From: Patescibacteria group bacterium
GTDB lineage: Bacteria; Patescibacteriota; Patescibacteriia; SG8-24; DYFX01
NCBI GenBank assembly: GCA_038062835.1
Contig: JBBTWH010000033.1
Coordinates: forward strand, 1 to 54,781
Direction of reading: 5' to 3'
DNA length: 54,781 nt
The notes under the pieces: model-generated
Told to the model about the DNA's origin: nothing
Database searches by the model: none
What the model saw: only the letters and a program-made list of their open reading frames with translations
Program-made: the position numbers and the translations under genes
Part shown: piece by piece, positions 2,343 to 54,781 of the stretch
How the letters are laid out: each line of letters starts with the position of its first letter
Numbering within the stretch: the stretch's first letter is position 1

Positions 2343-2375
2343 GGGCTTTTCCGTCTTTATCGTACCACAAAACGG

Positions 2376-6262: not shown

Positions 6263-6263
6263 A

Positions 6264-33749: not shown

Positions 33750-34230
33750 ATCCGAGTTTCTTCAGGATGCGTTTCTGGAGCGGGAACATCTTCTTTTCGT
33801 CCTTGGCGGTCTCATGATCGTGGCCGAGAAGGTGCAGGACGCCGTGGACGAGCATCATGGCGAGCTCGTCACGGACAGCCTTGCCGGCTTCGACGGCCTG
33901 ACGCTTGATCTGCGGCATCGAGATGACGATGTCCCCCAGCAACCCACCCGGCCACACATCGTTGCTTGCCCCGTGACCGCGAAGCGGTTTTACGGGGCCG
34001 AAGGAAAGGACGTCGGTCGTCTTCCGCTTGCCGCGATAGGCGGTATTCAAGGCGATCATCTCCTTATCGGCGACGAAGACCACGCCGACCTCGCCACGTA
34101 AAGCGGCTGTGCCGCCACGTGGCAAGCCTCCTGCCTTGGCGCCCTTGAGCGCCGCTTCCACCGCTTTTTTGACCCAGGCGTCGCTGACCGGCGCCGTCAC
34201 GCGGCGGGCGACGGACACCGTCACCTTCAT
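33742..34230 (-). CDS. ybeY: YbeY endoribonuclease (rRNA maturation factor); start trimmed to ATG 34230
   Basis: HGVLHLLGHDHE zinc-binding motif. ATGA overlap with the upstream gene, and an 8-nt overlap with dgkA. Confidence 0.85.
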   Translation of the reverse strand: MKVTVSVARRVTAPVSDAWVKKAVEAALKGAKAGGLPRGGTAALRGEVGVVFVADKEMIALNTAYRGKRKTTDVLSFGPVKPLRGHGASNDVWPGGLLGDIVISMPQIKRQAVEAGKAVRDELAMMLVHGVLHLLGHDHETAKDEKKMFPLQKRILKKLGYA

Positions 34231-35162
34231 GGCTTCGCGCTGAAACTGTTGACGAACATGACGAACGTCGTCCTGAACATGACCCGAGCGACGCCGCCAT
34301 GCCGCAACTCGTAGATCTTGCCTCCCAATGCGATATAGGCGGTGTCGCCGTCGGGAGTGCGGACGCCTTCGAGCCCGGATTTGGTGGTGAACACCTGCGC
34401 CTCCGAAGGGGAAGCGTCGGGATTCCGCGAAAGATACCAATCAAGCGGCGATTTTCCTTCCGGATTCTCACGTCTCCATACGGCGAAGACCTCATCGCCT
34501 TCGAGTTCGACGTCCAGGACGGTTTCCGCGACGCCCCGACCCGCTACCGACGATGCGGGCATGAGGAGCTCAAAACCGGCGTCCGAAGCATAGGTCTTTA
34601 CCTGACCCGCCTCGATCAGCTTCGTCGGTCGAAAGCCTGCCGGATTGTACAGGTTCGTGACTTCGACCGAATCGGAGAAGCCGTCTTCGTCGGAATCGGA
34701 TTTCTTCGCGTCGGTACGGAAGAGCGCCTCTTCGACCGTCGTCAGACCGTCGCCGTCTTCGTCGGCCGAAGGCGAGGGCGCCGCCGGGACTTCCGGGGTC
34801 GTGGTGGTCGATTCGGGCGGAGGCGCCGGTTCCTGTTCCGACTGAGGTTCAGGTCGCGGTTGCGGCGCGGGAGTCGTCGGCAGCGTAACGGAAGGTCTCG
34901 TGGGAGCGGGCGCAGGCTTCGGCTTCAGGAGATACCACGCGCCGAACCCGAGACCGAAGACGAGCAGGAGCGCGATGACGGGAATGAGGATCCATGCCTT
35001 GCTCCCTTTCTCTTGCGGAGCGGCGGATGGCGCCTGAGCCGCCGGCGCGGCGGACTCCTTCGAGAGCTGCGCCTTCGCCGCCAGACCGTAAAACTGCTCG
35101 GGGATGGTGTAGATCTCCGGATCTTTCGAGGCTCCTGCAAGTCGTATCGGCTGATCGGGCAT
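34227..35162 (-). CDS. Membrane-anchored surface protein with Pro-rich stalk, thrombospondin type-3-like Ca-binding repeats and a C-terminal globular domain
   Basis: 311 aa. TM WILIPVIALLLVFGLGFGAWYLL. PxP-rich linker. DEDGDGLTTVEE and DSDEDGFSDSVE (DxDxDGxxDxxE) motifs. Confidence 0.7.
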   Translation of the reverse strand: MPDQPIRLAGASKDPEIYTIPEQFYGLAAKAQLSKESAAPAAQAPSAAPQEKGSKAWILIPVIALLLVFGLGFGAWYLLKPKPAPAPTRPSVTLPTTPAPQPRPEPQSEQEPAPPPESTTTTPEVPAAPSPSADEDGDGLTTVEEALFRTDAKKSDSDEDGFSDSVEVTNLYNPAGFRPTKLIEAGQVKTYASDAGFELLMPASSVAGRGVAETVLDVELEGDEVFAVWRRENPEGKSPLDWYLSRNPDASPSEAQVFTTKSGLEGVRTPDGDTAYIALGGKIYELRHGGVARVMFRTTFVMFVNSFSAKP

Positions 35163-35173
35163 GGCGAGTGATT

Positions 35174-35761
35174 TTAGCGGGCGGTCGGAATCTCTCCGAG
35201 GCGGCCGTCGCCCTTAGGGTCGTAGAGGTTCTTCACTTCGGCGCCGTCTTTGAAGGTGTCTCCGTCCGTATCCGGGTTCAGCGGATCCGTCTGATAGGTC
35301 TGGACTTCCTCGCGGTCGGAAAGTCCGTCATCGTCCGAATCGACATTCGCCGGGTCGGTACCGAGGCTGACTTCCTGCGCATCCGACAATCCGTCCCTGT
35401 CAGAGTCCGTCTCGTCCGCAGGAGCCGGGGTCGGCTCTGGTTCCGGTTGCGGTTGTGGTTCCGGTATCGGTTCCGGCTGCGTCTCGGGCTGCGTCGCCGC
35501 CGGGACGACAGGAGTCGGCTCGCCTTTTCCGCTGAGCGTCAGGAAGGCGGCGGCGGCACCTCCGCCTACGAGCAGCAGGGCGACGAGGCCGATGACGACA
35601 CGCTTCTTGCCGAAAGGCGCAGACTCGAGGATGACGCCGGAAGCGCCGACGGCAAGCGGCGTCGTGCCGGTCGGCATCTGGCCGGGCGCGAGAGGCTTTT
35701 CCGAAGGGATGTCGGCGAAGATGTCGGCCGGTTCGTCCTTGTCGTCGAAGATGAAGATCAT
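35174..35761 (-). CDS. Membrane-anchored protein with Pro/Glu-rich stalk and four TSP3-like Ca-binding repeats (paralogue of the 34227-35162 repeat region)
   Basis: Start trimmed to MIFIFDDKDEP. TM VVIGLVALLLVGGGAAAAFL. DSDRDGLSDAQE, DSDDDGLSDREE, DTDGDTFKDGAE. Shares the ...V(K/T)NLY(D/N)P motif with its neighbour. Confidence 0.7.
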   Translation of the reverse strand: MIFIFDDKDEPADIFADIPSEKPLAPGQMPTGTTPLAVGASGVILESAPFGKKRVVIGLVALLLVGGGAAAAFLTLSGKGEPTPVVPAATQPETQPEPIPEPQPQPEPEPTPAPADETDSDRDGLSDAQEVSLGTDPANVDSDDDGLSDREEVQTYQTDPLNPDTDGDTFKDGAEVKNLYDPKGDGRLGEIPTAR

Positions 35762-35777: not shown

Positions 35778-36311
35778 TTATCGTCCGGGCGTCTCGAAGG
35801 CCATCGCGTCAGATTCCCAAACCTTTCCGTCGGCGTCCGTGGCCTTGACACGTACCGCGTAGGTCACGCCTGGGGACAGGCCCGTGAGACGGACCTCCTG
35901 CGTCACGGAGGGCGAGGCGGCGCGCGCCGTGCCGAGCTCGTAGCGCTCCGTCTGGCCATAGGAGACTTCCCCGGTCGAGGGCTTCGACGTCTTCCAGCCG
36001 ATCGTGAGGGATGTCGGCGTCACGTCAGTGGCGACGATGGAGCCGAGGAACCTGTCTTCCTCGCTGCCGCAATCGGACTTGCACCAGGACTCACCTTCCG
36101 AGCAGACGCCGTCACCGCACGGTCCGGCTTGGGCCGGCGACGGCGCTGAGGCGCCTTCTTCGGAAGCCTCATCCGCGCCGTCCGGCGAGACTCCCGCATC
36201 GACCGAGGTCTCGCCGACCAAGGCTCTCGACCTGACGAAGACCACCGCGAAAGCCGCGGCCGCGACCAGGACCGAAGCCGCGCTGATTCCGATGATGAGC
36301 TTCTTCGGCAT
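35778..36311 (-). CDS. Membrane-anchored fibronectin type III domain protein
   Basis: 177 aa. N-terminal anchor, small Cys knot (CGDGVCSEGESWCKSDC), then an FN3-like TPTSLTIGWKTSKPSTGEVSYG...LSPGVTYAVRVKATD. Confidence 0.7.
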   Translation of the reverse strand: MPKKLIIGISAASVLVAAAAFAVVFVRSRALVGETSVDAGVSPDGADEASEEGASAPSPAQAGPCGDGVCSEGESWCKSDCGSEEDRFLGSIVATDVTPTSLTIGWKTSKPSTGEVSYGQTERYELGTARAASPSVTQEVRLTGLSPGVTYAVRVKATDADGKVWESDAMAFETPGR

Positions 36312-36337: not shown

Positions 36338-39300
36338 TCACAGGGCAGGACCCGTGCCCGGACTCGCGGACCGGCCGATGGTGCAGACGTTGGCGAAGGT
36401 CGTCGCCTGGAGCTTGCCGTAGTAGTAGTCGCTGGAACCCGGGGCTCCGTCCGGCGCTATCTCGATGAAGCGTCCGGGCTGGTCGCCATAGACGATGGAG
36501 TCCCACTTGCCGTAGTGCGCCGTCGGCGCGATGACGAACGTCTCGACCCTGAATCCCGGGTCGCCGCCGCAGCCTGAAATCTCGCAGGCGTTCACCTTGT
36601 CGAAGACCGTGCTTTCGTCCTTCCAATGGCTGTCATCGGAGGTGAGGCAGTGATACGCAGGCCCTGATATCGGATTGCCGCACCTGGGGGGCTCATCGGT
36701 CACGACGACGATATACGGGTGCCCGTCATCGCTCCAGTTGATGCCGTACTTATTGGCGCTGCTGGCCAGCTCGTACACCGAGTCGTACATCGGCTCGTTT
36801 CCGCCTCCATTCGCCAGAAGGGACGAGAAGGCCGTCTGGAAGGCCGCGACGCCGGTCAAGTCGATGACGACGCGCCCCTGAGGACCCGCCGTCTGCAGCG
36901 GCGATCCCGTCGACTGTCCGAAGACGACGAGTCCGAAACGGTGATCGGTACCGGCATAGTTGCCGACGAATCTCGAGATGGCGTCCGAGATGCCGTCGAT
37001 GTAACCCTGCATCGAACCGGAGATGTCGACGGCGAAGACCATGTCGACCTTGGTGTGCAGGTTCGGGTTATCGTTGATGGTGCCGTTGCAGTCGTTGTCG
37101 TACGCGTCGCAGGTCTCGGGATGCGCCGGGATATCGATCTTGCTTCCGTCGCTCGGGTACTTGTACGCGGCGTGCATCGCCGGGTTCGTCGGTCCGCAGT
37201 CGAATTCGTCCGGCACGCCGTCGTTGTCGTCGTCGGGGTCGCAGGCGTTCTTCAGCACGACTGCCGAGCTCGCCGGCGGCTGCTCGTCATAGCGCGGGTC
37301 TCCGGATGCGGAAATCTGGCAGGAGGCGACGCTTCCGCCGGTCGGACAGACGGAGCGGTACGGGCTCGCGGCGCATTCGGCGCTTCCGGCCGGGCATGCC
37401 TCGTCCGCGCCGCCGTAGCGGTCGCTGTTGGCCGTACCTTGGGCGTTGTCGCAGATGCGGCTTTCCGAATCGACGCAGCCTTGCTGGCAGCTGCCGATGG
37501 TGCAGGCGACGAAGCCCGTGATGCGGCCGAACGACTGGTGCTCCGGCTTCGTACTGACGCAGACGAAGCTGTTCGCGAGCCCCTGGTCCTTGTCGCACTG
37601 TTCAGGCCCCGGCGGACTGGCGACCGCGTTCTGGAAGACCTGGTCGCCGCAGAAGCCGCCGGTCAATGTCTTGACGGCGCAGGCGTTGTCGCAATAGTTG
37701 CAGGTCAGGCCGTACTTCGGCAGGCAGAGCACGCCGTTGGCGGCGCCGTTGTCGCATTGCTCGACGCCGGCGCGGACGAACCCGTCATTGCAGACGTTGC
37801 GCTTGCAGGTGGGCAGGCATTCTCCGGTCGTCGAGTTGGCGGTGCCGGCGTCGCACTGTTCCGCGCCTTCCACTTTGCCGTTGCCGCAGGCGCCCGAAGG
37901 CTTGCAGGATGACCAGTCGTCGAACGTGCAGGCCTGCCCCACGCGAGCCGTGGCCGGGAAGCAGCTCTTGGCGCGGGTCTGCGGCAGGCCGCCGGCGGTC
38001 GCGGCGCACAGGGCGCACTTCTTTCCGGCGCCGCAATCGGCGTCCCTCGCGCAGGCTTGGGCCGATCCGGAAATCGTCGCGCCGTCGGACAAGATGGAGG
38101 CCGCGTCGATGCAGACGCCGGAAGCCGCCTGTCGGTTTCCGTCGCAGAGTTCGCCGCCGTTCGTCTCGGCGTCGCCGCAGCGCGGACCGGCTCCGCGGCA
38201 GTCCCAGGCGCACTTCCCGTATTGGCCGTTCTGGGCGCCGTCATCGCAAAGCTCCGGGCCGTTCTTCACGCCGTCTCCGCAGAAGTTCATCCGATCGGTG
38301 CAGACTCGCGAGGGGCCGCACTCGGCATTGGTGTTGCAGACCGGACCGAGGTCGCCGAGGCTGAACGAGGAACGCTTGGCGATGTTGACGCAGCGTTCGA
38401 CGCAGCCGAAGCCGCCGGATCGGCAGCGGCCGTATTGGCCGGTCTGCGATCCGTCGTCGCAGGTCTCTCCGGCGAAGGTCTCGAGCGAACCGTTGCCGCA
38501 AGCGGAGGCTCCGGGGCAGGCCTGGACGATGTTCCATCCCGTGCAGGCATCGTTGCAGGCTTCGCGGCGGGAACCCTGACCGGCTCCGCAAGCGACAGTC
38601 TGGGTCGCGCCGATCTCGCATGTTTCGGAGCCTTCGAGCAGGCCATTGCCGCAGACCGCGGCCGCGGCCGGCCCGAAGAGCGGAACGTTCCTGGGAACGC
38701 AGGCGTCTTCAGGAGCGCAGGTGGACGATTCAGAGCAGGCGACGCCGGTGGCGAGGCACTTGTTCGCGCCGTCCGTGAACAGGCCGGAGCAGGACGAGAC
38801 GGTCGAGATACGCGTCTCGCAAGCGCCCGTACCTGGCCCCGTCGGGAACCATGAACACCCGACGGCGGCCTCGCAGAAGCTCTCGTTCGATTTGGCCGAG
38901 CAATCGGACTGGGTCCAAGGATACGCGGTATATTCCAACCCGACGTTCATGCGATAGTCGTCTCCTCCGATGGCGCGGTACTGGTAGACGTGGGAGGCGG
39001 CCGGGCAAGCGAAGACGGAAGCGCGGTCGTCGTAACAGGTCGCGGATTCGAACTTCACGCGGCAGACGTCGCCGGTGCCGCCCTCGCAGTCGCCGTCGGC
39101 GGCGCAGGCCTTGCGGCTCACGACGCATTCGGACCCGAACGATTCGCAGCGGTTGAAGCGGTTGAGCGGATCGACGATCTCGCCGGCGGCGCCGAGCAGG
39201 CGGCTCCAGGAAGGCCACGAAGACGTCGTGAAGCCGCGGATGAAGCTTCCGGATCCTATTTCCGGATAGGATCCGGAGTCGGCGCGCGCGCTCTCCAAGG

Positions 39301-42300
39301 CCGACTCTATCTCGCGCATATCCTGCCAGCGGCGCATGTCGCGGCGGATCTTATCCTTGTCGGAGTCGCAGGTCAGCCCGGCGGGCGGAGCCTGGAAGGC
39401 GGCGAAGCAGTCGAGGTCGCTGGAGCAGACGGTCGGCGGCGTTTCGGCGCCTCCGGCGCGGGCGATCTGCCCGTCCGGCGTCTTGCAGACGTCGGTCACG
39501 CGATCAGACGGCACCAGGTTCGTATTGAAGCGCACGTTCTTGACGAGCCGATTGAAGATCTCGGCCGTGCGCGCGTCAGCGTTCTCGTTATAGGCGAAGA
39601 CGTACATGTACGAACGCAGTTCCGGATCGCCGTACTTGTCGACGGCGCCGACATACGTCGTGCGGTCGGCCTGAATCGCCATATAGCCGTCGACGGTCGA
39701 GGGCTGGGTCTTTCCCGAGAAGTTCTGCGCTTCATACCACTCCTGCGGCGTCAGGCGGTTCGGGTCGTCATAGGCACGCACGCCGATCACGTCGGAAAGC
39801 TTCCAGACCGGGTCGAAGCGGAAGAACATGTCCTTGGAGAGGCACTGGTCGGCGGCTCCGCAGTCGGCGTCGCTGAAGCAGGACTTCGGCTGTTCGCCGT
39901 CGCGGGTCGTGCGGCAGAAGCGAAGGATGGACGCCCCCGAACCTGATTGTCCTTGCACCGGAGCGGCTAGGAGTTCCGGCAAGGCCGCTCCCGCGTTGTC
40001 GCGGCAGTAGAAGAACTCGAAGTGGGTCGCCGGATCGACGTACGGTCTCCACGCGCCGGTCGCCGGGTCGCGGCGCGGCCAAGGCTGTTCGCAGAGCATC
40101 ACGGTAATCGACGAAATGCCCGCTTTCTCCTTGCCCACGGTCGGAGGAGTCAGGATGATATCGGTCGTGATGCGCGCCGAAGCGACGACCTGTTCGCGGC
40201 CGTTCAGCTCCTTGGAGGCGCGGACCGTGGCGGACGGGTCGGAAGCGGCCGTGAGCGTCAGGAGAGATCCCGGCGGAGCGGCCTCGGGCACGGTGGTCCA
40301 GCTCCATGTCCAGTCATAGACGCCGGCGATCGGAGCGATGGCCTCGAGCTGGCCGGCGCGGTTGGTCATGGCGGTAGCGCTGATCGGAAGCGGGGCGTCG
40401 GCCGTCTGGATCAGTTCCGTGGCCGGATCCACCTCGACGACGTCGAAGTCGCAGATTTCCGCGCCTGTCGTGAAGACCTGGGTCGTGTCGTCGCCGTCCG
40501 GATACCCGACTCCCTTTACGGTCTTGGCGCCGGTGACGCCGCCGCGGACCGTCACGCGATACGTCCGATTCTCGTCGTACAGCTGTTTGGGCGCGAACTT
40601 GGAGACGGTGCGGTTCCCGGCGGGGCCGACATCGACGGCGTGCCTGAACGATCCCTCGACAGGGCTGCAGACGGCCTGCGCCGCGGCTGACGCGCCGACG
40701 AGCGAGCGCAGGAAGCGTCCGGCTGCGGCGAGCGCCCGCGAGAGCCAGTTGCCGTCTTCGGAACGCGCGGCGAGGCCGGCGCACGATTCGACGATGATGC
40801 CGCCCTGGAGCGAACCGACGTTCATCTCCTCGCCGAACGTCACGGTCACGAGAGCGTTGCGGCACTCGTTTCCGCCCTTGGGATCGATGTCGGGCTTGTC
40901 CGGACGCCGGTAGCAGCAGGCGCCGGCGCCGCAGGAAAGCCCCGCTCCGAACGCGCTGCAGTCGCTGTCGTTGCGGCACGCGCACTCGACGCTGACGCCG
41001 CCCTTTCCGGAAACGGAACCGATCGAGGCGGTCACGGAGGCCGCGCAGCTGTTCCTGGCGTCGCACTGATTGAGCGCCTCGACGACCTGAAGCGGATCGA
41101 TGTCGGCATCGAGCGAGCCGGCTTCGCATTCCTCGCCGCCGCCGTTCTGGGCGGACGTGAGCGGATCGGCCGGCTTGACGTTGATGTTCATGTCGCCGCA
41201 GTACGCGCGCAGCGCGGGGTTCGAACCTGTCTTGGTGCAATTCGACGAGCAGCCGGAAGCCGGGTCGCCGTTGGCGGCGCCGGCGTCGCAGCCCTCCCCC
41301 TTCGCGAAGTCGATGGCGCCGTTGCCGCAACAGTCGGCGCCGGACGCGCATGTCGCGGTATTGCCGCGCAGGAGGCAGGACGGACCGCAGGCGAAACCCG
41401 GCCGCGTCGGGTTCTGCTCGTCGCCCGCCCCGAGCGCGATAGGCGCACGGCCGAGGATCAACAGGCTCGTACCCAAACCGGCCGCGCCGAGCTCGTAATC
41501 GCACTGCTCGCCGGGTTCGAGCACGCCGTTTCCGCAGACGTACGCGTCCTGCGAAGACCCATCCAAGGTGCAGCTGGATCCGCAACCGTCGCCGCCGTCC
41601 GTATCGCCGTCGTCGCAAGCTTCGCCCACGCCGACCGAACCGTTGCCGCACGAAGAAAGGCCCGGCGACGAGCCGGTCAGGAGGCAGGCGGCCGTACAGC
41701 CGGAATCCGCGGCACCGTTCTCCGCGGCGGCGTCGCATTCCTCGCCGCGGTCGGCCTGGACGGTACCGTCGCCGCAGCCGTTGGCCTGCGTGTTACCGGT
41801 GCGCAGGCAGCTGGAGTTGCAGCCGTTCAGGTTCGGCGTGTCGCAAGCTTCGCCCGTCTCGATGATGCCGTTGCCGCACTTCGGAGTGCCTGGCGGCTTG
41901 CTGCCTGTCATCACGCAGGAAGACGAGCATCCGGCAGGGAGCGCGGGATTGGTGTTCAGCAGGGCTCCGGGCGGCACGTTCGGCAGGTAGCGGAAGGATA
42001 TCGGGTCGGCCGGGGCCTGCGCCTTGGTCCAGCCCCAGTTGAAGGAACTGGATGCCAGGATCTGGCCATTGGCCGCGCAGGCGTCCGGAGAGCTGCGCGG
42101 CAAGGCGGAGATCTGCGCGACGGCGCCGATGTAGCGGAGCGTCGTCTGCGTCGGCTCGATCTGGATCTTCTGGGGTCCGCATGGATTGGCGCTCTGGCGC
42201 GTACGGAACGTCCAGCTGAAGGCGGCGTTCTCGAAGTTCAAGCCCGTCAGCGGCGCGTCGCTGGTGCTGAGGGCGGAGGCGAGCACCGAGACTCGATAGA

Positions 42301-45300
42301 AGGCGTTCGGCGCGAGTCCAGGGTTGTCGAACGTCAGGAGGCGCGCCGGCGCGTTGTACCGCGGCGCGACAAGCACCTCGCCCTCATACGCCAGGCAGGA
42401 CTCGTTGCGGCAGCGGCGCATCTTCACGTTGCTCAGCACGCTGCCTGATCCGTCGGTCCGCATCGGCGTGTTGAAGTACGCGAACGCGACGGTGTTCACG
42501 CAGGCTTGGTCGCATTCGCGCGGTCCGTAATCCACGACGCGAGGATTGGCGTAATCGATCGTCAATCTTCCGGCGTCGTTGAAGCCGTCGACGGTCGAGC
42601 GGATCTCGATCGGCGGGCCTGGATCGGTTTCGGAAACGGGCGTCGCGACGGCTTCGCACCGTCGCGCGCCGCCGAAATCCGCGACGGTCGCCTTGGCGGC
42701 GTCGGACGAAGTCCAGCTGACGGCTCGTCCTTCGCAGGAGAGGATCACGCAGCGGGCCGAGAGCGGGAAAGCCGCATAGGCTTCGGTCTCGTCCGCTCCG
42801 GCGATGAGCGCGTTCGCCGGCTCGACGTTCAGTCCGGCGATGGCGCAGGGTCCCGCGCCTGTCTTGAAGGCCGTGACGTACGCTCCGCCGCCGCGCGCGT
42901 CGAAGTCGCCATCCAGCTGCTGGGCGGCGCGTTCGACGGTACCGATGCTGCGGACCTGATCGCGGATGGTGAGCCGGAACCAGGTGCCCTGAGCGAGGCC
43001 GCCGATCGGCAGCATCAGCATCGAGCGGCCTTCCGCGTCATAGGCCAAGACCTGGGGGGCGCCGACTCCTGCGACAGGAGCGCAATCAGACGCGACCGCG
43101 GGACCGGAGCCGCAAGATTCGAGTTCTACGTTGTTGGTGTTGAGAGTCGCCGCGTCCATCGGCAGGCTGAAACGGACTGTCATCGCCCCGATGTCCGTGC
43201 AGACGTCCGTCGCCCCCTTGAACGGGTTCGGGCTCGGCATCGTGGACGGCGGCGAGACCTGGCAAGTCGCGTTCTCGATGACGACCGGGAAGACCGGAAT
43301 AGGACCGGTGGAGAACTGCCAGGCGAAACCGCCGGCGGCGGCCGCGGCGCCGCAGGAAGAGCGGCAAGCGCCGTCGTCGCAGCAAGAGCGTCCGCTGCCG
43401 CAGACAGGGTCGCCGCCCGCCTCGCGACAGTCGCGCACCATGAAATTCACGCCGTTCGAATCGAGCGGGCCGGACGCGCCGAAGACGCGGACGCGCGCGG
43501 GTCCGGTGACGGCGCCTTCCGGCACGATCGCCGCGACGTCCGAAGAACGCCACTGTCCGACCGAAGCCGCGTTCGCATCCACGCTGAACCTGACGGCGTC
43601 CGGATGCAGAGTCATGAAGGCCGGCAGGTCGGTCGAGCCGATTTCACCGAAGCCGGCGCCGTAGAGCGAAACGGCGGTGCCGGCAGGTCCGTTGTCGGGG
43701 TCGACGCGGCAGATGCCGGGAGGCAGAGGATCGGTGTTGAGCGTGAAGGATCGCGCGTTCGAGACGCGGCCGTCCGAGCGCGCGACGGTGACGTCGTAGG
43801 CGCCGAGCGTCATTGCGGCATTGGCCGGGGTCGTGAAGCGGGACGGAATCTTGATCGTCACGCTCGCGTCAGTCCAATATCCGGCCGCGCATTGCGCCGG
43901 GAAACTGATGTCGCCGACGGCCTCGCCGGCGGCGTTCTTGAAACGCACGGTGCCGCCGGACCCGAAGTTCGCTCCGAAGACCGTCATATAGGTGCCGACC
44001 GAGCCGTCTTCCGGCGTCAGGAAATCGATGCGAGGTTCCGTGCCGGCCTCCGGAGGCTCCGCGCGGATGCAGCCGGTATTGGAAGACTGTCCGCCGACGA
44101 CCACGCGGACGAGATAGTTCGCGCCGCTCGCGCCCGTCTCGACGTTCGGGACCGTCGGACTGAGCGCCGTCTCGGCCCACGGCGAGACCGTCGCCGCTTC
44201 GGCGGCCTGGCTCCAGTCCTGGATCTGGCTGCAGTCGGCGCCCGCGCGGGCGAACTGGACGCGTGAACCGGCCTGGACGGCGCCGAACGCGCGGCCGGTG
44301 ACGCGGAGAGCCTGTCCCGTCTTGATCGAAGAGGGGGAAATGCCGCAGATGCCCGGACGCGCGGCGTCGTTGACCTGGAAATCGGTGATGATGGGGCCGT
44401 ACGCATCGTTGGTCGCGTCTTTCTTGCCGCCGGAGACGGTGATTTCGACGGGTCCGGTCACGGCGCCTTCTGGCACGGCTACGACGACGCGCCCGCCGGA
44501 CCAGGAGCCTGCGCAAGCGGCGAGGTCGGCCTCCTTGTCATCGGCCGCGTCGGCGGTTCCGACGAAGACGACCTTGCCCGCGAGCGCGCCGAAACGCACG
44601 CCGGTTATGGTCACGAGGTTTCCAGGCTTGCCGTCGCGAAGCTGGACGTCGGTGATCTGCGGACTTTCGGCGCACCGGCCGCTCACGCACTGGCCGGAAA
44701 CGCACTGGGCGTTATCGGCGCAGGTTCCGCCGGTGCAGGCGCCGCAGGAACCGCCGCAGTCGACGGCCGCCTCGTCTCCGTCCTTCACCGCGTTGAAGCA
44801 ATGCTGGGGGCGCACGGTGACGCGCACGTTCGCGGATACCGCCTCGTCGCCGTCGATGTTGATGCCGCGGGCACGAAGCGTCACGGTCTTCACCGGAACG
44901 TACGGCGTCGTGTCGAGGACGGTCTGGCTGGAATATGCGGAAGGCGCGATGGGCTGGGCATTGCCGTCGGCCGAGAAGAACGCCCCGTCGGCGGAATATT
45001 CGACGGCGGCGATGCCGTTCTCGTCGGTCAACAAGGCCTGGATCGGCACGGACTCCCCGGCCGGCACGGATTGGCCGTCGGTCGGGCTGGAGATGGCGAT
45101 CGTCGGCGGCTCCGTCGTCACGGCGTCTCCGGTACGGAAGCTGCGCGTACAGACGGCCCCGAGTCCGCAGGTGACCGTGTTCGCTCCGGAAGCGTTCTTC
45201 AGTCCGGCGCTGACAGTGATCTGGTAATCGGAATTCGGCTCGAGGCAGCGTCGGTCCGCGTTCGGTTCCGGGCAGATCGCGACGGGGCGCAGGCGGATGG

Positions 45301-45946
45301 TGTCGTTCTCGACGACGGGTTCGTAGTCGACGGCCGTGCGCGAAGAACCCGCGATCTTCTCGAGCCGCAGGTTGGCGCGGATGTTGGCCGTGTCGCCCGT
45401 CGGGGCGCCGCTGAACGTGACTGCGGAGAAGACGTCGTACTTGGCGAGCGAGCCGCTCGGCTGGATGGCCGTCGGCCGGAAGGCGCCGCCGGAACCTCCG
45501 AAGCCGCCTCCTCCTCCACCACCACCTCCGTCGCCTCCGTCGCCCTGGCCGACCGTCGCGCCGACGAGCGAAGCGATGATGAACGACGTGACTGCGAACG
45601 CGGACATCATGATCACGAGACCGATCACGGCGGATGCCAGCGTCTTCTTGGCGCTCGTGATCTTCGCGTCATCCCCAGCCGCAGTCATCCAAAGGAAGCC
45701 TGCGTACAGGATGAGGAGGAGCGCGATCGTGCCAAGCAGGCCGAAAGCGACGCGGATGACGCGCGCGATCGTGATGCGGATGTCCTGGGTGCCGGTGCCG
45801 ATCGTCTGTCCGACCTGCTCAGGCAGGAGCTCGTTCGACGACACGCCCTGCGCCAATGCCGCGTGATGCGACGCGAACCACAAGCCCGGCACGAGAAGCG
45901 CCAGGGCGAGGATCAGGGAACGATGTCGGCGGAAGAACTCCCTCAT
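36338..45946 (-). CDS. Giant (3,202 aa) membrane-anchored multidomain surface protein / putative adhesin
   Basis: Uninterrupted ORF with recognizable modules along its whole length (see the sub-features that follow). One-nt spacing (TAGTATG) to the upstream paralogue. Confidence 0.9.
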   Translation of the reverse strand: MREFFRRHRSLILALALLVPGLWFASHHAALAQGVSSNELLPEQVGQTIGTGTQDIRITIARVIRVAFGLLGTIALLLILYAGFLWMTAAGDDAKITSAKKTLASAVIGLVIMMSAFAVTSFIIASLVGATVGQGDGGDGGGGGGGGGFGGSGGAFRPTAIQPSGSLAKYDVFSAVTFSGAPTGDTANIRANLRLEKIAGSSRTAVDYEPVVENDTIRLRPVAICPEPNADRRCLEPNSDYQITVSAGLKNASGANTVTCGLGAVCTRSFRTGDAVTTEPPTIAISSPTDGQSVPAGESVPIQALLTDENGIAAVEYSADGAFFSADGNAQPIAPSAYSSQTVLDTTPYVPVKTVTLRARGINIDGDEAVSANVRVTVRPQHCFNAVKDGDEAAVDCGGSCGACTGGTCADNAQCVSGQCVSGRCAESPQITDVQLRDGKPGNLVTITGVRFGALAGKVVFVGTADAADDKEADLAACAGSWSGGRVVVAVPEGAVTGPVEITVSGGKKDATNDAYGPIITDFQVNDAARPGICGISPSSIKTGQALRVTGRAFGAVQAGSRVQFARAGADCSQIQDWSQAAEAATVSPWAETALSPTVPNVETGASGANYLVRVVVGGQSSNTGCIRAEPPEAGTEPRIDFLTPEDGSVGTYMTVFGANFGSGGTVRFKNAAGEAVGDISFPAQCAAGYWTDASVTIKIPSRFTTPANAAMTLGAYDVTVARSDGRVSNARSFTLNTDPLPPGICRVDPDNGPAGTAVSLYGAGFGEIGSTDLPAFMTLHPDAVRFSVDANAASVGQWRSSDVAAIVPEGAVTGPARVRVFGASGPLDSNGVNFMVRDCREAGGDPVCGSGRSCCDDGACRSSCGAAAAAGGFAWQFSTGPIPVFPVVIENATCQVSPPSTMPSPNPFKGATDVCTDIGAMTVRFSLPMDAATLNTNNVELESCGSGPAVASDCAPVAGVGAPQVLAYDAEGRSMLMLPIGGLAQGTWFRLTIRDQVRSIGTVERAAQQLDGDFDARGGGAYVTAFKTGAGPCAIAGLNVEPANALIAGADETEAYAAFPLSARCVILSCEGRAVSWTSSDAAKATVADFGGARRCEAVATPVSETDPGPPIEIRSTVDGFNDAGRLTIDYANPRVVDYGPRECDQACVNTVAFAYFNTPMRTDGSGSVLSNVKMRRCRNESCLAYEGEVLVAPRYNAPARLLTFDNPGLAPNAFYRVSVLASALSTSDAPLTGLNFENAAFSWTFRTRQSANPCGPQKIQIEPTQTTLRYIGAVAQISALPRSSPDACAANGQILASSSFNWGWTKAQAPADPISFRYLPNVPPGALLNTNPALPAGCSSSCVMTGSKPPGTPKCGNGIIETGEACDTPNLNGCNSSCLRTGNTQANGCGDGTVQADRGEECDAAAENGAADSGCTAACLLTGSSPGLSSCGNGSVGVGEACDDGDTDGGDGCGSSCTLDGSSQDAYVCGNGVLEPGEQCDYELGAAGLGTSLLILGRAPIALGAGDEQNPTRPGFACGPSCLLRGNTATCASGADCCGNGAIDFAKGEGCDAGAANGDPASGCSSNCTKTGSNPALRAYCGDMNINVKPADPLTSAQNGGGEECEAGSLDADIDPLQVVEALNQCDARNSCAASVTASIGSVSGKGGVSVECACRNDSDCSAFGAGLSCGAGACCYRRPDKPDIDPKGGNECRNALVTVTFGEEMNVGSLQGGIIVESCAGLAARSEDGNWLSRALAAAGRFLRSLVGASAAAQAVCSPVEGSFRHAVDVGPAGNRTVSKFAPKQLYDENRTYRVTVRGGVTGAKTVKGVGYPDGDDTTQVFTTGAEICDFDVVEVDPATELIQTADAPLPISATAMTNRAGQLEAIAPIAGVYDWTWSWTTVPEAAPPGSLLTLTAASDPSATVRASKELNGREQVVASARITTDIILTPPTVGKEKAGISSITVMLCEQPWPRRDPATGAWRPYVDPATHFEFFYCRDNAGAALPELLAAPVQGQSGSGASILRFCRTTRDGEQPKSCFSDADCGAADQCLSKDMFFRFDPVWKLSDVIGVRAYDDPNRLTPQEWYEAQNFSGKTQPSTVDGYMAIQADRTTYVGAVDKYGDPELRSYMYVFAYNENADARTAEIFNRLVKNVRFNTNLVPSDRVTDVCKTPDGQIARAGGAETPPTVCSSDLDCFAAFQAPPAGLTCDSDKDKIRRDMRRWQDMREIESALESARADSGSYPEIGSGSFIRGFTTSSWPSWSRLLGAAGEIVDPLNRFNRCESFGSECVVSRKACAADGDCEGGTGDVCRVKFESATCYDDRASVFACPAASHVYQYRAIGGDDYRMNVGLEYTAYPWTQSDCSAKSNESFCEAAVGCSWFPTGPGTGACETRISTVSSCSGLFTDGANKCLATGVACSESSTCAPEDACVPRNVPLFGPAAAAVCGNGLLEGSETCEIGATQTVACGAGQGSRREACNDACTGWNIVQACPGASACGNGSLETFAGETCDDGSQTGQYGRCRSGGFGCVERCVNIAKRSSFSLGDLGPVCNTNAECGPSRVCTDRMNFCGDGVKNGPELCDDGAQNGQYGKCAWDCRGAGPRCGDAETNGGELCDGNRQAASGVCIDAASILSDGATISGSAQACARDADCGAGKKCALCAATAGGLPQTRAKSCFPATARVGQACTFDDWSSCKPSGACGNGKVEGAEQCDAGTANSTTGECLPTCKRNVCNDGFVRAGVEQCDNGAANGVLCLPKYGLTCNYCDNACAVKTLTGGFCGDQVFQNAVASPPGPEQCDKDQGLANSFVCVSTKPEHQSFGRITGFVACTIGSCQQGCVDSESRICDNAQGTANSDRYGGADEACPAGSAECAASPYRSVCPTGGSVASCQISASGDPRYDEQPPASSAVVLKNACDPDDDNDGVPDEFDCGPTNPAMHAAYKYPSDGSKIDIPAHPETCDAYDNDCNGTINDNPNLHTKVDMVFAVDISGSMQGYIDGISDAISRFVGNYAGTDHRFGLVVFGQSTGSPLQTAGPQGRVVIDLTGVAAFQTAFSSLLANGGGNEPMYDSVYELASSANKYGINWSDDGHPYIVVVTDEPPRCGNPISGPAYHCLTSDDSHWKDESTVFDKVNACEISGCGGDPGFRVETFVIAPTAHYGKWDSIVYGDQPGRFIEIAPDGAPGSSDYYYGKLQATTFANVCTIGRSASPGTGPAL
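36497..37051 (-). other. Domain: C-terminal von Willebrand factor A (vWA) domain with MIDAS motif (aa ~2966-3150)
   Basis: VDMVFAVDISGSMQ (DxSxS), ...GGGNEP..., IVVVTDEP. Preceded by CDPDDDNDGVPDEFDC and ETCDAYDNDCNG metal-binding-like motifs. Confidence 0.75.
37577..38653 (-). other. Domain block: cysteine-rich repeats, cluster 2 (aa ~2432-2790)
   Basis: CGNGLLEGSETCE, CGNGSLETFAGETCDDGSQTGQYGRC, CGDGVKNGPELCDDGAQNGQYGKC, CGDAETNGGELCDG, CGNGKVEGAEQCDAG, CNDGFVRAGVEQCDNG, CGDQV..PEQCDKD. Confidence 0.65.
38957..39361 (-). other. Domain: type IV pilin globular-head-like region without N-terminal hydrophobic helix (aa ~2196-2330)
   Basis: DKIRRDMRRWQDMREIESALESARADSGSYP ... GEIVDPLN ... HVYQYRAIGGDDYRMNVGLEY parallels the RDakR.sDl..i..ALelY..dnGsYP ... 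DP.n ... Y.Y....y.L.a.LE layout of Gram-positive/CPR-type pilins. Confidence 0.5.
41117..41878 (-). other. Domain block: cysteine-rich repeats, cluster 1 (aa ~1357-1610)
   Basis: At least 6 units of CGNG/CGDG-x(5-9)-GE.CD-x(6-12)-C-x3-C (e.g. CGNGIIETGEACDTPNLNGCNSSC), like the myxococcal cysteine-rich repeat (DUF4215-type). Confidence 0.65.
43427..44665 (-). other. Domain block: four IPT/TIG-like Ig-fold repeats (aa ~428-840)
   Basis: Repeated P.I..v.P..G..G..vtI.G..FG pattern (e.g. SPQITDVQLRDGKPGNLVTITGVRFG; EPRIDFLTPEDGSVGTYMTVFGANFG; PPGICRVDPDNGPAGTAVSLYGAGFG). Confidence 0.65.
45479..45550 (-). repeat. Low-complexity poly-Gly linker (GQGDGGDGGGGGGGGGFGGSGG)
   Basis: The CCNCC-rich run on the plus strand translates to a ~24-aa Gly tract separating the membrane module from the ectodomain. 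Confidence 0.9.
45557..45946 (-). other. Domain: signal peptide + two-TM TrbC/VirB2-type (T4SS-pilin-like) module, aa 1-130 of the giant protein
   Basis: LLPEQVGQTIGTGTQDIRITIARVIRVAFGLLGTIALLLILYAGFLWMTAAGDDAKITSAKKTLASAVIGLVIMMSAFAVTSF: hairpin of two hydrophobic helices preceded by a cleavable signal. Recognized from memory of the T4SS_pilin family. Confidence 0.6.
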
Positions 45947-45947
45947 A

Positions 45948-47729
45948 CTATCGGATGAACCCGCAGGCCGTCAGAGAAGGCGTGCCGTTGCAGCAATACG
46001 GTTCGGTACCGGTGCAGACCGTCTGCCCGGCGCCAGGGAAGAAGCAGTTCTGTCGCAGATCGCGGAGGCCCGACGTCAGGTGCGCGGCGTACGGTTGGTT
46101 GACGGAAAGCAGGTCGTGGCGGATGAGGGCCTGGCCCTGATCCGGTTCTCCTCCGGCGACCGACGAGACGGTGCCGCCCTCGACCCAGTAGTTGGTCGGC
46201 GCTCCGTCCGGTCCCGGTACGAGGCGGACGCTCGAGGTCGACATGCTGGTGAAGCTCATCAGCTTCGAGAAGGTGGCCTTCATGCCCAGGTCGCGCGGGA
46301 TATTGCCCTGGAGCGTCGCCGGATCCTGCGAAACCACCTTCGGCGGCACGAGATCGATCCGGTTCGATGTGTCGAAATCATAGGCATAGTCGTCGCCTGT
46401 CGGACCCTCGGCTGCGCCGTCGCCGTCGCCGTCGAGCGAGTTGCCGGCCATGTCGGTCACGCCGTTGGGCGGGAAGATGCCGGTAGGAGGCGTGACGGTC
46501 AGCCCGTCGGACTTCACGCGCACGCCGACGCGCTGATTGCCGGGCAGGCAGTAGACCTTTTCGCCGCATGAGTTCGTGCCGCAAAGCTCGTCCGTGCGGA
46601 ACTCGACGCTGCGATACGAATTGCCGACGGCCTGCACGCCCTGGATGACGGCGCCTGCTCCGCGCGTCACGCTCATGCCGGAGGCGACGCTGACCGGATC
46701 GACCGCTTCGTTGAACGTCACCTGGACGAGCGAGTTGCGTGGCACGGCTTGGTCGCCGTCGGCCGGGACGGCGTAATCGACGCGCGGCGGCGTCAGGTCC
46801 AGCACGGTCGAGACCTGGAACTCCCAGAGGTAGCCGGAGTTGAACGTGCCGCCGAAGGCCGCCGATCCGCCCGTTTTTTTCACGCCGTCCGATCCGCCGC
46901 GGAGCGCGACGGTGTAGAAGACGTTCTCGGAGGGGCTGCCGAAGCAGTCGGTCGGGCAGTTCTTCTGGATGAAGGCGAAGGTGCGGTTGTCAGGCGTCGC
47001 CACGACCTCGATGGCGTCGCTCACGAGGCTCTGGGCGAACTTCTCGGCGAACTGATTGGAAGTTCCGACGACCTGCGAAGAGCGAAGGATAGCCGCGGTC
47101 GGCGCAGTCCCGCCCAGCACGATGGATGCCGGATCGATGGCTTCCTTGAACGTGACGACGACACGCGTGTTGCGGGCGATGCCCGTGGCGTTGCGTGTCG
47201 GGAAGTGGCCCTCGATGATGCCGTTGCCCAGGGCTCCGGCGGGGCAGGTGGAAGAGAGGCCGATGCAGGCGCGGTCGTCGGGAGCGCTTGACGAGGACCC
47301 GCCCCCTCCAAAACCGGTGCCGGCTTCAAGCAGGCGGCTGATGACGAACGACGTGATGCCGAAGGCCGACAGCAGGATGACGAGGCCGACGATGGCCGAG
47401 ATCAGGGTTTTCTTGGCACGATCGACTTTATCGACTTCCCCGGCGGCGGTCATCCAAAGGAAGCCCGCGTAGAGGATGATGAGGACGGCGATGACGCCCA
47501 GGAAACCGAAGGCCGCGCGGATGAGGCGGGCGATGATTATGCGGATATCTTCCGTGCCGGTCCCGATGACTTCTCCGACCTCTTGCGGCAAGAGCTCATC
47601 GGACGTGACGTCCTGCGCGCGTACGGCGGTCGGAAGGGCCGTATACGCAAAAACCGCCAACACGAAAGTCAGGACCGTGAAAGCGGTTATCGCGAGCGTT
47701 CGGGCTGATAGCTTCCTTCCTGAGAGCAT
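45948..47729 (-). CDS. 593-aa membrane-anchored surface protein: T4SS-pilin-like N-terminus (paralogue of the giant protein N-terminus) + SbsA/Big_5-like Ig domains
   Basis: N-terminal 130 aa are ~70% identical to the giant protein N-terminus. Then a G/S linker and repeats of the P....v.v.F.eavdp.sv type. Confidence 0.8.
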   Translation of the reverse strand: MLSGRKLSARTLAITAFTVLTFVLAVFAYTALPTAVRAQDVTSDELLPQEVGEVIGTGTEDIRIIIARLIRAAFGFLGVIAVLIILYAGFLWMTAAGEVDKVDRAKKTLISAIVGLVILLSAFGITSFVISRLLEAGTGFGGGGSSSSAPDDRACIGLSSTCPAGALGNGIIEGHFPTRNATGIARNTRVVVTFKEAIDPASIVLGGTAPTAAILRSSQVVGTSNQFAEKFAQSLVSDAIEVVATPDNRTFAFIQKNCPTDCFGSPSENVFYTVALRGGSDGVKKTGGSAAFGGTFNSGYLWEFQVSTVLDLTPPRVDYAVPADGDQAVPRNSLVQVTFNEAVDPVSVASGMSVTRGAGAVIQGVQAVGNSYRSVEFRTDELCGTNSCGEKVYCLPGNQRVGVRVKSDGLTVTPPTGIFPPNGVTDMAGNSLDGDGDGAAEGPTGDDYAYDFDTSNRIDLVPPKVVSQDPATLQGNIPRDLGMKATFSKLMSFTSMSTSSVRLVPGPDGAPTNYWVEGGTVSSVAGGEPDQGQALIRHDLLSVNQPYAAHLTSGLRDLRQNCFFPGAGQTVCTGTEPYCCNGTPSLTACGFIR

Positions 47730-49132: not shown

Positions 49133-49162
49133 CAAAAACCCCGCCTCGTGGCGGGGTTTTTG
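49133..49162. terminator. Bidirectional intrinsic terminator after the 49166-52369 gene
   Basis: Perfect 11-bp stem AAAACCCCGCC (49135-49145) / GGCGGGGTTTT (49150-49160) with loop TCGT. Confidence 0.85.
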
Positions 49163-49165
49163 GTC

Positions 49166-52369: not shown

Positions 52370-52412
52370 TGACGCTGTGAGCGGCGAGACGCCTTGTTAA
52401 TCATGAAGCGGA

Positions 52413-52441: not shown

Positions 52442-52491
52442 CGATGACGTATCGATCATCAGAAACTTACGGTGGATATCTTCCGTCGGGA

Positions 52492-52523
52492 CAAAAAGCC
52501 CCGCCTGATGGCGAGGCTTTTTC
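52492..52523 (-). terminator. Intrinsic terminator after hisS
   Basis: Stem AAAGCCCCGCC (52495-52505) / GGCGAGGCTTT (52510-52520), with a G-U pair on the minus strand, followed there by TTTTGTCCC. Confidence 0.75.
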
Positions 52524-52524
52524 C

Positions 52525-54054: not shown

Positions 54055-54077
54055 GCGAGCGGTGTAGTTGCTTAGGA

Positions 54078-54704
54078 TTACGGGGCGCTGAACACGGTGG
54101 CGCGGTCGAGGGGCCAGCCGCGGATCCAGACGCGTCCGACGACGTTCTTGGAGGGGAGGGGTCCGAATGTCCTCGAGTCGAGGCTGGCGGTGCGGTTGTC
54201 GCCCATGACGAAGTATTCGTCGGAAGCGAGGGTGACCGTCTTGTCGCCGTGCGTGATGGCGTCCGGACTCAGGTACGCGCTCTCGTCGAGGGTGAAACCG
54301 TCCGGATGCTCGGCGTTCGTGACGATGATCTTGCTGTCCGACACGCGCACTGTCTCGCCGGGCATTCCGACGATGCGCTTGATGAAATACTGGCGCGGAT
54401 CGAGCGGATAGCGGAACACCACGACCTCGCCGCGCTCCGGCTGGCGGAGCCGATAACTCAGCTCGTCGATGATCAGGTACTCGTGGTCGTCGAAGGTCGG
54501 CTCCATCGAGGCCCCCTTGACGTAGAACGGCTGGATCAGGAAGTAGCGGATCGGCAAAATGATGGCGAGCGAGATCACGACGATCTCGACCAGCTCCAGC
54601 GCGAACCGACCGATCGATCCGAGCAGCGACGAAGTCTCTCCGTCTCCTGGCATCGCCGGTCCGGGAGGGACTGCCGGAATGACGGGCTGTGGGGTGTTTT
54701 CCAT
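54078..54704 (-). CDS. lepB: Signal peptidase I
   Basis: GASMEPT (Ser box), RGEVVVFRYP, GDNRTASLDSR motifs. Start trimmed to ATG 54704 because the longer ORF would overlap the tRNA. Confidence 0.85.
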   Translation of the reverse strand: MENTPQPVIPAVPPGPAMPGDGETSSLLGSIGRFALELVEIVVISLAIILPIRYFLIQPFYVKGASMEPTFDDHEYLIIDELSYRLRQPERGEVVVFRYPLDPRQYFIKRIVGMPGETVRVSDSKIIVTNAEHPDGFTLDESAYLSPDAITHGDKTVTLASDEYFVMGDNRTASLDSRTFGPLPSKNVVGRVWIRGWPLDRATVFSAP

Positions 54705-54725
54705 GGAAAAGCGGGAATGGCGACG

Positions 54726-54781
54726 TGGTGGACGTTGGTGGGATCGAACCACCGACCTCTGTCGTGTGAGGACAGCGCTCT
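54726..54781 (-). tRNA. tRNA-Val (anticodon CAC), 3' portion; the 5' end lies beyond the window
   Basis: Reverse complement reads AGAGCGC-TGTCC-TCACACG.. : anticodon arm CTGTC-CTCACAC-GACAG, variable AGGTC, T-arm GGTGG-TTCGATC-CCACC, acceptor AACGTCC, A, CCA ending at 54726. Confidence 0.8.

Follow-up and report, generated by a model that had tools for sequence, protein, structure and literature searches.

A pilin-rooted giant protein and its modules

The stretch analyzed here (the window) comprises positions 1 to 54,781 of contig JBBTWH010000033.1 (assembly GCA_038062835.1), from an ultra-small groundwater bacterium, a member of the Patescibacteria group (GTDB lineage Patescibacteriota; Patescibacteriia; SG8-24; DYFX01). 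On its minus strand lies one uninterrupted frame of 3,202 codons (ATG at 45946, stop at 36338-36340) for a modular surface protein, called the giant below, which begins with a pilin module of the type IV secretion system (T4SS) kind and ends in a variable tip; directly upstream lies a partner gene that also starts with a pilin module. Domains were located by Pfam and NCBIfam scans of the whole giant and of nine overlapping segments, and the gene pair is laid out as follows (Cys-rich units were counted by regular expression, and AF2 denotes AlphaFold2):

45948..47729, minus strand: partner gene, 593 aa, its stop codon 1 nt before the giant's ATG
36338..45946, minus strand: giant gene, 3,202 aa, pilin-rooted modular surface protein (open reading frame, identical proteins, orthologues)
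45851..45946, minus strand: residues 1-32, Sec-type signal peptide, predicted cut A32↓Q33 after ALA (hydropathy, conserved motif)
45542..45850, minus strand: residues 33-135, T4SS_pilin (VirB2-like) module (PF18895 match, AF2 hairpin)
45479..45541, minus strand: residues 136-156, Gly-rich flexible linker (read from sequence)
44807..45478, minus strand: residues 157-380, Ig-like, weak Big_5 followed by Big_7 at 281-330 (Pfam; Big_7 above cut-off)
43433..44665, minus strand: residues 428-838, four IPT/TIG domains (PF01833 in four stretches, 65 bits in total)
41927..43309, minus strand: residues 880-1340, Big_5 (902-1001, above cut-off) and unassigned beta-rich stalk
40907..41878, minus strand: residues 1357-1680, Cys-rich block 1 (six CG[ND]G..E.CD units, 1357-1608) and a Cys-rich knot (regular expression, TIGR02232)
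38657..40879, minus strand: residues 1690-2430, family-defining conserved core (kept in 29 orthologues)
37592..38653, minus strand: residues 2432-2785, Cys-rich block 2 (seven units by regular expression; the last ends exactly at the homology breakpoint)
36341..37591, minus strand: residues 2786-3202, variable tip cassette (sequence unrelated to that of close orthologues' tails)

The initial annotation, made from the letters of the window, had proposed a single 9.6-kb open reading frame (ORF) and had raised the concern of a chimera across its repeats. The ORF proved real: six or more contigs in ENA and Logan assemblies (Hainich groundwater, well H41, 0.2 um fraction) code for an identical 3,202-aa protein, its predicted start (MREFFRRHRS...) was kept in orthologues, and collinear orthologues were found in dozens of species. 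Because the same protein is encoded on independently assembled contigs, an assembly chimera is very unlikely.

Several observations characterized the N-terminal module, which had been read as a cleavable signal plus a two-helix hairpin of the TrbC/VirB2 type: i) PF18895 (T4SS_pilin) matched residues 59-123 with 31.7 bits in the whole protein and 37.6 bits in the segment (Pfam cut-off 26.6), and the close relatives P0059 and P0127 also matched PF04956 (TrbC/VirB2); ii) over the whole giant, hydropathy revealed a signal-peptide-like segment (residues 11-29, then ALA↓QG) plus exactly two helices (58-92 and 101-134), all within the first 134 residues, and the AxA↓Q motif was kept in orthologues, so that cleavage after Ala32 can be inferred; iii) the AF2 model of the module was a helix-loop-helix (helices 56-88 and 93-132; predicted local confidence, pLDDT, 86-94), laid out as a short N-terminal stretch, helix 1 with YAGFLWMTAAG, a basic loop (DDAKITSAKK) and helix 2; iv) residues 1-136 retrieved 259 proteins, the best 120 of which were PF18895 proteins of 113-233 aa with 36-62% identity, and the named organisms among these best 120 were Patescibacteria or unclassified bacteria; v) the residues invariant in stand-alone pilins (G72, G83, F84, W86, M87, T88, A89, G91, G109 and L110) were all kept, and the module was the best-conserved block of the giant (60% mean identity over 30 complete orthologues). 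The hairpin and its signal were thus borne out by the Pfam match, hydropathy and the AF2 model, in a protein whose 3,202 aa set it apart from the small stand-alone subunits typical of PF18895. A Foldseek comparison of the module's AF2 model with the Protein Data Bank (PDB) returned a best E-value of 3.2, the Aeropyrum conjugation pilus 8dfu ranking fourth (E 4.8, TM-score 0.51); a helical hairpin is too simple a fold, so Foldseek cannot discriminate here. Matches to the pilin hidden Markov model (HMM) in the window were confined to the two fused genes. Genes for VirB4, VirB6, VirB3 and stand-alone pilins were absent from the window, as were T4SS genes from the syntenic loci examined.

The rest of the shaft also largely followed the first reading. 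The poly-Gly linker was present at 136-156, and the 593-aa neighbour and all 30 orthologues had a Gly/Ser-rich linker at the equivalent place. The SbsA-type Ig domains were recovered as Big_5 and Big_7 above cut-off (for Big_5, one such match at 902-1001 and two weaker ones), the four IPT/TIG repeats as the four PF01833 stretches, and the two Cys-rich blocks, foreseen with at least six and at least seven repeats, as exactly six plus seven units; TIGR02232 (myxo_disulf_rpt) scored 23.5 bits in four stretches (cut-off 20.8), and DUF4215 fell below threshold. The conserved core between the blocks contained a weak Big_5-like piece and, at about 2196-2350, the region that had been likened to a type IV pilin head. 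This motif was strongly conserved in 29 orthologues. In a single comparison, their profile could be aligned over only some 50 residues with the one authentic Patescibacterial type IV pilin found among the loci, in its alpha1C/G-x-YP part (11 bits, E 1.6e-5), and the motif had no Pfam match and no PDB sequence match; the motif itself stands, and its identity as a pilin head is unproven. Profiles of the core built from the 29 orthologues (1690-1990, 1990-2200 and 2190-2360) matched nothing among PDB sequences, and the Pfam scan of residues 2000-2430 was likewise without a match.

The tip: a vWA domain in an exchangeable cassette

The tip consisted of a Cys-rich region, TSP3-like and MopE-like CxxxDNDCNG motifs (2901-2955) and a von Willebrand factor A (vWA) domain (about 2965-3185) with D2974/S2976/S2978, E3051 and D3084. 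The last 417 residues had 14 relatives in the protein database, one of them 67% identical and twelve being proteins of 600-660 aa with MopE motifs. Of the metal-binding-like motifs noted initially, TSP_3 (E 0.023) and Cu-binding_MopE (E 0.005) stayed below threshold in the giant itself; 13 of the 14 tip relatives nevertheless carried a PF11617 annotation. The vWA matches at 2968-3084 also fell short of the curated thresholds (VWA_2, 24.5 bits against 27, E 4e-5; VWA, 20.6 against 23.8, E 6e-4). On the other hand, a tip-family profile matched integrin I-domains in the PDB (E 4.8e-5, integrin alphaX I-domain), and the AF2 model (pLDDT 75-93 over most of tail residues 180-400) matched the integrin alpha2 I-domain 1aox in Foldseek (E 6e-10, TM-score 0.67; 433 matches with E<=1e-3). 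Thus the vWA domain is real despite its Pfam score, since both the family profile and the predicted fold match integrin I-domains. Among the 14 tip relatives, DxSGS (D2974-x-S2976-x-S2978), E3051 and the Asp of TDE (D3084) were invariant. The claim of a C-terminal vWA domain with an intact DxSxS motif of the metal ion-dependent adhesion site (MIDAS) accordingly held; the canonical MIDAS Thr was not evident.

Thirty complete orthologues were collinear with residues 1-2785 (the closest 65-78% identical, the rest about 30%), and beyond 2785 similarity dropped to background. The break fell directly after the last Cys-rich unit (...PEQCD/KDQGL in the giant versus ...PESCD/PGPV..WCSRTY in relatives). 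At the DNA level, identity of 70-81% with four relatives (L005, L006, L011 and L014) ran from 48588 down to about 37630, was then lost, and returned at about 35765 in a TSP3 gene; the replaced segment therefore comprises the tip and a 177-aa gene with a fibronectin type III (fn3) domain. The genes downstream of the giant are:

35778..36311, minus strand: membrane-anchored protein of 177 aa that combines one CGDGVC..GE.WC..DC unit with an fn3 domain (Pfam fn3; within the swapped cassette)
34227..35761, minus strand: two membrane-anchored Pro-rich proteins of 195 and 311 aa with bacterial TSP3 repeats (TSP3_bac, E 1.7e-16)

A 2.9-kb contig from another sample (L086) carried the same tip type (67% identical, with the adjacent stalk at 79%), followed by an fn3 gene (51% identical) and a TSP3 gene; the cassette is therefore found in at least two lineages. 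L005 and L006, equally related to the giant, carried a different tip and no fn3 gene. From these alignments, the last 417 residues plus the downstream fn3 gene form a swapped cassette. In a search for direct or inverted repeats at its ends, only the periodicity of the Cys repeats appeared. The GC content at third codon positions was the same in the tip as in the rest of the gene, so there was no compositional sign of a recent foreign origin.

Tips varied widely across the family. Among 21 orthologue tips, eight contained VWA or VWA_2 (best E 2e-13), seven of these with DxSxS and all unrelated in sequence to the tip of the giant, and another eight contained CarboxypepD_reg-like domains. Over 72 representative giants, 22 tips were CarboxypepD_reg-like, seven were of the first vWA type and 43 were neither; a sample of those 43 yielded Lectin_C (E 1.5e-16), CBM60, VWA, MopE, fn3, Big_7 and DUF1554, and SdrD_B was also present among tip modules elsewhere in the family. 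Families of toxins, nucleases, peptidases or other enzymes were found neither in the tip of the giant nor in 40 other tips. Two individual tips were composite: P0208 joined a proximal TSP3-like/MopE-like part, as in the window, to a distal CarboxypepD_reg-type part, and P0227 had a proximal part and a vWA domain resembling those of the giant, which suggests shuffling at two or more junctions.

A conserved gene pair in a large Patescibacterial family

The 593-aa partner consisted of a pilin module 62% identical to that of the giant, a Gly/Ser linker, two Big_5 domains and a C-terminal Cys motif (about 560-593; QNCFFP....C.......CCN.......C). This motif was also kept between relatives only about 32% identical overall (the L084 orthologue), and may form a disulfide knot or mediate an interaction.

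Residues 1-900 of the giant, used as a query, found 26 proteins, nearly all combining PF18895 with TIG, Big_5 or Big_7 and assigned to Ca. Uhrbacteria or other Patescibacteria; database labels call such relatives just "IPT/TIG" or "Ig-like domain-containing protein". Contigs with orthologues of the 593-aa protein showed the same order, YqeY, pilin-Ig gene and a giant of 3,252 or 3,420 aa. In a scan of one genome per GTDB species, the 593-aa gene had at least 569 relatives. The best 80 of these loci were scanned with a pilin HMM built from 120 small pilins, and nearly every one with downstream sequence had a second pilin-module ORF directly after the pilin-Ig gene, of 2,500 to more than 3,600 residues or cut by the end of the contig or locus; the upstream partners measured 590-760 aa across the family. 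In eight of the 80 an extra small pilin gene lay between the two. With a second scan, which extended the pair to Magasanikbacteria, Falkowbacteria and Buchananbacteria, about ten species (L018, L025, L031, L045, L046, L049, L057, L061, L101 and L103) had a stand-alone PF18895-type pilin of 124-190 aa between the pair genes, making a three-gene pilin array. The pair was also present in a complete genome (CP129476.1, L011), and the named genomes that carry it belong to class ABY1 according to the GTDB classes in Table S1, as excerpted, of Quinonero-Coronel et al. 2025. The second scan also revealed separate arrays of 9-12 small pilins, and arrays of 5-12 consecutive small pilin ORFs (130-370 aa) were seen in Magasanikbacteria and other Patescibacteria (L126, L128, L147 and about 30 other loci), in agreement with the upper end of the 2-11-gene "VirB2 arrays" of the literature.

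The core defined an even broader set. An exhaustive HMMER search with residues 1950-2360 gave 1,285 clusters at 50% identity, 1,155 of them with E<=1e-10, and family giants reached 4,671 aa. A pilin module opened 72 of the 78 listed core-bearing representatives of at least 2,500 aa, and the other six look N-terminally truncated. Judged from these sequences, pilin module, stalk and partner are the standard architecture of a large Patescibacterial family, not a singular mosaic. Dozens of records of metagenome-assembled genomes (MAGs) with clear Patescibacterial synteny are titled "uncultured Gammaproteobacteria bacterium" (SRP*/ERP*/binchicken series), and single records are titled Ca. Methylomirabilis, Ca. 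Binatia or Ca. Kapaibacterium; these titles appear to be default or erroneous assignments, or else the contigs appear to be mis-binned.

Gene neighbourhood

The pair lies within the order signal peptidase I (54078-54752), HisRS, a secreted 1,067-aa protein, YqeY and the pair, followed by the fn3 gene, two anchored TSP3-repeat proteins, YbeY, DAGK, FtsA, FtsZ, NrdR, HtrA and pyruvate kinase; the neighbouring genes all encode membrane-anchored or secreted surface proteins. The TSP3-repeat genes (Ca-binding-type repeats) directly followed the giant in L005, L006 and L086 as well, and their products may be parts of its surface apparatus, a membership that is uncertain.

The secreted 1,067-aa protein (49166-52369, minus strand) had no Pfam match and contained three copies of a motif of about 45 aa, C[ST]ADxWxCTxxxxCSxSGTQTRTCTMTDDC, with Pro/Thr linkers between them; its gene, missing between HisRS and YqeY at the syntenic loci of L003 and L005, is a lineage-specific insertion. 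A similar repeat (C.YTY..G.C..G.G..W.Q) makes up the tip of the family member P0262. A type IV pilus cluster (1398-7919, minus strand), 28 kb from the giant, comprised PilM-like (1398-2342), PilC/T2SSF (5198-6436) and PilB/T2SSE (6264-7919) genes and three further ORFs without a Pfam match, one of which (4239-5201) has a pseudopilin-like GMSLVES motif; type IV pilus machinery is therefore encoded within the same 55 kb as the T4SS-pilin-type fusions. The window also holds a complete tRNA-Asp(GTC) (24859-24936, minus strand) and a tRNA cut by the window end (54729-54781, minus strand).

Interpretation and alternatives

We give about an even chance to the reading that the giant is a fibrillar adhesin of an ABY1-class Patescibacterium, whose VirB2-type pilin root stays in the cytoplasmic membrane and whose tip is interchangeable. 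Its N-terminus would be exported by Sec and cut after Ala32 by signal peptidase I, and the two hydrophobic helices would then form a hairpin with the short basic loop on the cytoplasmic side. With the loop in the cytoplasm, as the positive-inside rule and VirB2/TraA biology predict, both ends of the module and hence the C-terminal 3,070 residues would face outward. A Gly-rich hinge would join this root to a long, presumably extended stalk of Ig, TIG and disulfide-rich repeats that includes the conserved core, and the stalk would present a distal module, here a vWA domain that may use a metal-ion site (DxSxS plus Asp) for ligand binding. Exchange of the tip cassette between lineages, here together with the small fn3 gene, would retarget the fibre, presumably to host-cell surfaces, and the giant would cooperate with the 593-aa pilin-Ig product of the gene that ends 1 nt upstream. 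The proposal of a self-contained, membrane-rooted adhesive stalk thereby survives in part: it is the most economical reading, and everything after the N-terminus is predicted extracellular, but "self-contained" is doubtful because the giant translationally abuts a second pilin-module gene and its tip co-varies with the downstream fn3 gene.

The recognizable tips of the family favour this adhesin, as they are binding or Ig-like modules (vWA, Lectin_C, CBM60, CarboxypepD_reg and SdrD_B). The domain order with its predicted topology, the conserved pair, the sharp break at residue 2785 and the surface proteins encoded nearby also count in its favour. Several points weigh against it. A passive membrane anchor would hardly seem to call for so strongly conserved a pilin module. 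The conserved core and the first 176 residues of the tip have no assigned family or fold, and the vWA scores lie below Pfam's curated cut-offs. Invariant E3051 sits in the loop where the canonical MIDAS Thr would be expected, so metal binding by the tip is not assured. Moreover, 43 of the 72 representative tips match none of the three tip profiles and only some of those sampled have Pfam matches, which makes the statement that all tips are binding modules an extrapolation. Finally, the giant and its family are known here from sequences and predicted models.

A more tentative alternative is incorporation into a T4SS-type pilus. The giant and its partner might be modular minor pilins, their modules being extracted from the membrane by VirB4, VirB3 and VirB6 and built with small pilins into a VirB2-like filament; less probably than the anchored adhesin, the giant could then sit at the filament tip or sparsely along it and display its adhesin away from the cell, in a VirB5-like or PrgB-like role. 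Retention of every invariant residue of stand-alone pilins and the top rank of the module in conservation fit such incorporation, and the tandem fusions with an extra pilin in about ten loci resemble Patescibacterial pilin arrays. In F and T pili, the solved pili of the VirB2/TraA type, both pilin termini face outward, so that a C-terminal fusion is topologically permitted. A modular type IV pilin that includes a vWA module (PilB of Streptococcus sanguinis) provides a precedent. VirB4 is listed as present in five of the six named genomes carrying the pair. A survey of Patescibacterial T4SSs states that "No adhesins, such as the MPF-FATA PrgB, were detected", and VirB5 is not known to be reported among their components, which leaves a gap that the pair could fill. 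In its fullest form, which we regard as possible yet doubtful, ABY1 Patescibacteria would build a VirB2-like pilus whose tip complex, the 593-aa pilin-Ig protein plus the giant, replaces VirB5 and PrgB, the distal cassette of the giant setting host specificity. However, T4SS genes never adjoin the examined loci and the window lacks them, the pair instead occupying a conserved neighbourhood of housekeeping genes (HisRS-YqeY ... YbeY-FtsA-FtsZ); in one excerpt of Table S1 of the survey, VirB4 is scored absent from 10 of 16 Uhrbacteria MAGs, although these are drafts; pilus formation by Patescibacterial VirB2-like proteins is not established; and Foldseek gave the hairpin no significant match.

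An unlikely alternative is a structural role in the envelope, with the giant as an S-layer-like or wall-spanning scaffold of a monoderm Patescibacterium; on that equally improbable account tip variability would reflect surface diversification, for example to evade phages or predators, and not ligand choice. S-layer proteins typically carry Big_5, the pair is common in its clade and lies beside cell-division genes, and its neighbours are other anchored surface proteins, but the recognizable tips are ligand-binding modules (vWA with DxSxS, C-type lectin, CBM60), and a single N-terminal anchor followed by 3,000 residues of serial domains suggests a fibrillar adhesin and not a lattice-forming S-layer protein. 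Much less probable still is a polymorphic-toxin protein of the contact-dependent inhibition kind, with the stalk as carrier of an effector that varies at the C-terminus, and with an immunity partner encoded by the downstream gene that is swapped along with it. The sharp break after a conserved repeat and the co-occurrence of C-terminal region and small gene in two lineages are reminiscent of such systems; yet no toxin or enzyme domain was detected in any of the tips searched, the fn3 protein is membrane-anchored and faces outward, unlike a typical cytoplasmic immunity protein, and L005 and L006, the closest relatives, lack an extra gene of this kind; we rejected this reading for want of a toxin or enzyme domain. 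That the ORF is an artefact, either a chimera across repeats or a chance long frame, has a negligible probability. The GC content of the window (61-69%) yields many spurious ORFs, including long antisense shadows of real genes such as 49148-52372 (plus strand, 1,074 aa) and 52444-54075 (plus strand, 543 aa), so that ORF length alone is not evidence here, and the giant gene does contain internal repeats; against this stand the identical protein from independent assemblies, orthologues of 2,500-4,670 aa collinear over 2,785 residues in many species and Pfam matches spread along the whole length, and the artefact was rejected on the independent assemblies and the collinear orthologues.

Significance

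Patescibacteria account for much of the bacterial diversity not yet in culture, and every cultivated member lives attached to a host cell. In the only genetically tractable species their T4SS, with its VirB2-like pilin arrays, is indispensable, and no adhesin has been found for it. The family is a concrete candidate for the means by which most Patescibacteria recognize and hold their hosts: about 1,150 core clusters, a conserved gene pair, a pilin-type root, a stalk of 2,500-4,700 residues and an exchangeable distal module. The family may be a means of host attachment by these bacteria. If the hairpin serves only as an anchor, the phylum would have its own way of displaying proteins at the surface. 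If instead the pair is built into a pilus, a modular pilin of the conjugative type would be known for the first time, and the Patescibacterial T4SS would have its missing adhesin; the "modular pilin" principle would then reach beyond type IV pili to pilins of the conjugative type.

Comparison with known systems

A search of the literature found no published description of pilin-fused giant proteins. The combination, which had seemed unfamiliar at first, is indeed uncharacterized, yet among sequences it is a common family architecture, in which vWA is one of many interchangeable tips: the 417-residue tip differs even from that of orthologues with 78% identity elsewhere. The family is large and conserved, and the giant combines elements of known kinds, namely VirB2-like pilins, modular pilins and fibrillar adhesins.

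PF18895 VirB2-like pilins in arrays of 2-11 are known in Patescibacteria from the T4SS survey, which in its excerpted text describes the systems as monoderm MPF-FATA type, usually without a relaxase, and which counted pilins by HMM; fused forms are not mentioned in that text. Epibiotic growth of Southlakia epibionticum requires the T4SS together with its pilin array, and PF18895 is the most abundant domain in freshwater-specific structure clusters. The N-terminal 135 residues of the giant, above the Pfam threshold and 40-60% identical to the small pilins, are a true member of the Patescibacterial VirB2-like pilins, such as those of the Southlakia epibionticum and Nanosynbacter lyticus arrays; these pilins share with the giant the signal peptide, a YAGFLWMTAGG helix, the basic loop, the second helix and tandem paralogues. 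They are stand-alone proteins of about 100-230 aa, often beside virB4, whereas the giant adds 3,070 residues predicted to be extracellular and lies outside a T4SS locus.

The closest characterized analogue in design is PilB of Streptococcus sanguinis, a type IV pilin with a grafted vWA module at the pilus tip (PMC8179133). Both follow one design idea, in which a small filament or membrane module bears a grafted adhesive part that includes a vWA domain with a metal site, adhesion and metal binding being putative in the giant. The signal peptide of PilB is of class III and its fold that of a type IV pilin, while the giant has a Sec signal and a two-helix VirB2-type hairpin; a regular-expression search of the giant ORF for the prepilin motif (G↓F-T-L-I-E) found none. 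The graft of the giant is also about ten times larger, and its tip is exchangeable.

In the N-terminally retained giant fibres LapA, MpIBP and SiiE-type RTX (repeats-in-toxin) adhesins, as in the vWA tips RrgA and GBS104 of sortase pili, a stalk of Ig repeats carries a distal ligand-binding module, often vWA. The giant likewise has an Ig-like stalk presenting a distal, putative binding module, but without RTX repeats or LPXTG and with a different anchoring principle: its C-terminus reads ...IGRSASPGTGPAL with no LPXTG sorting signal, no RTX Pfam match was found in it, and neither type I secretion system nor sortase genes were seen among the window ORFs scanned.

The tip itself has its nearest counterparts in metagenomic proteins, from marine and other samples, of 600-660 aa that combine MopE motifs with vWA (P0148-P0159) and are 26-40% identical to it over residues of about 2900-3202. 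They share the CxxxDNDCDG motif and a vWA domain with invariant DxSGS, E and D, but unlike the giant they are short stand-alone secreted proteins with many MopE-type repeats. One such MopE plus vWA protein lay in an unrelated neighbourhood, with no pilin- or Ig-domain gene among its annotated neighbours.

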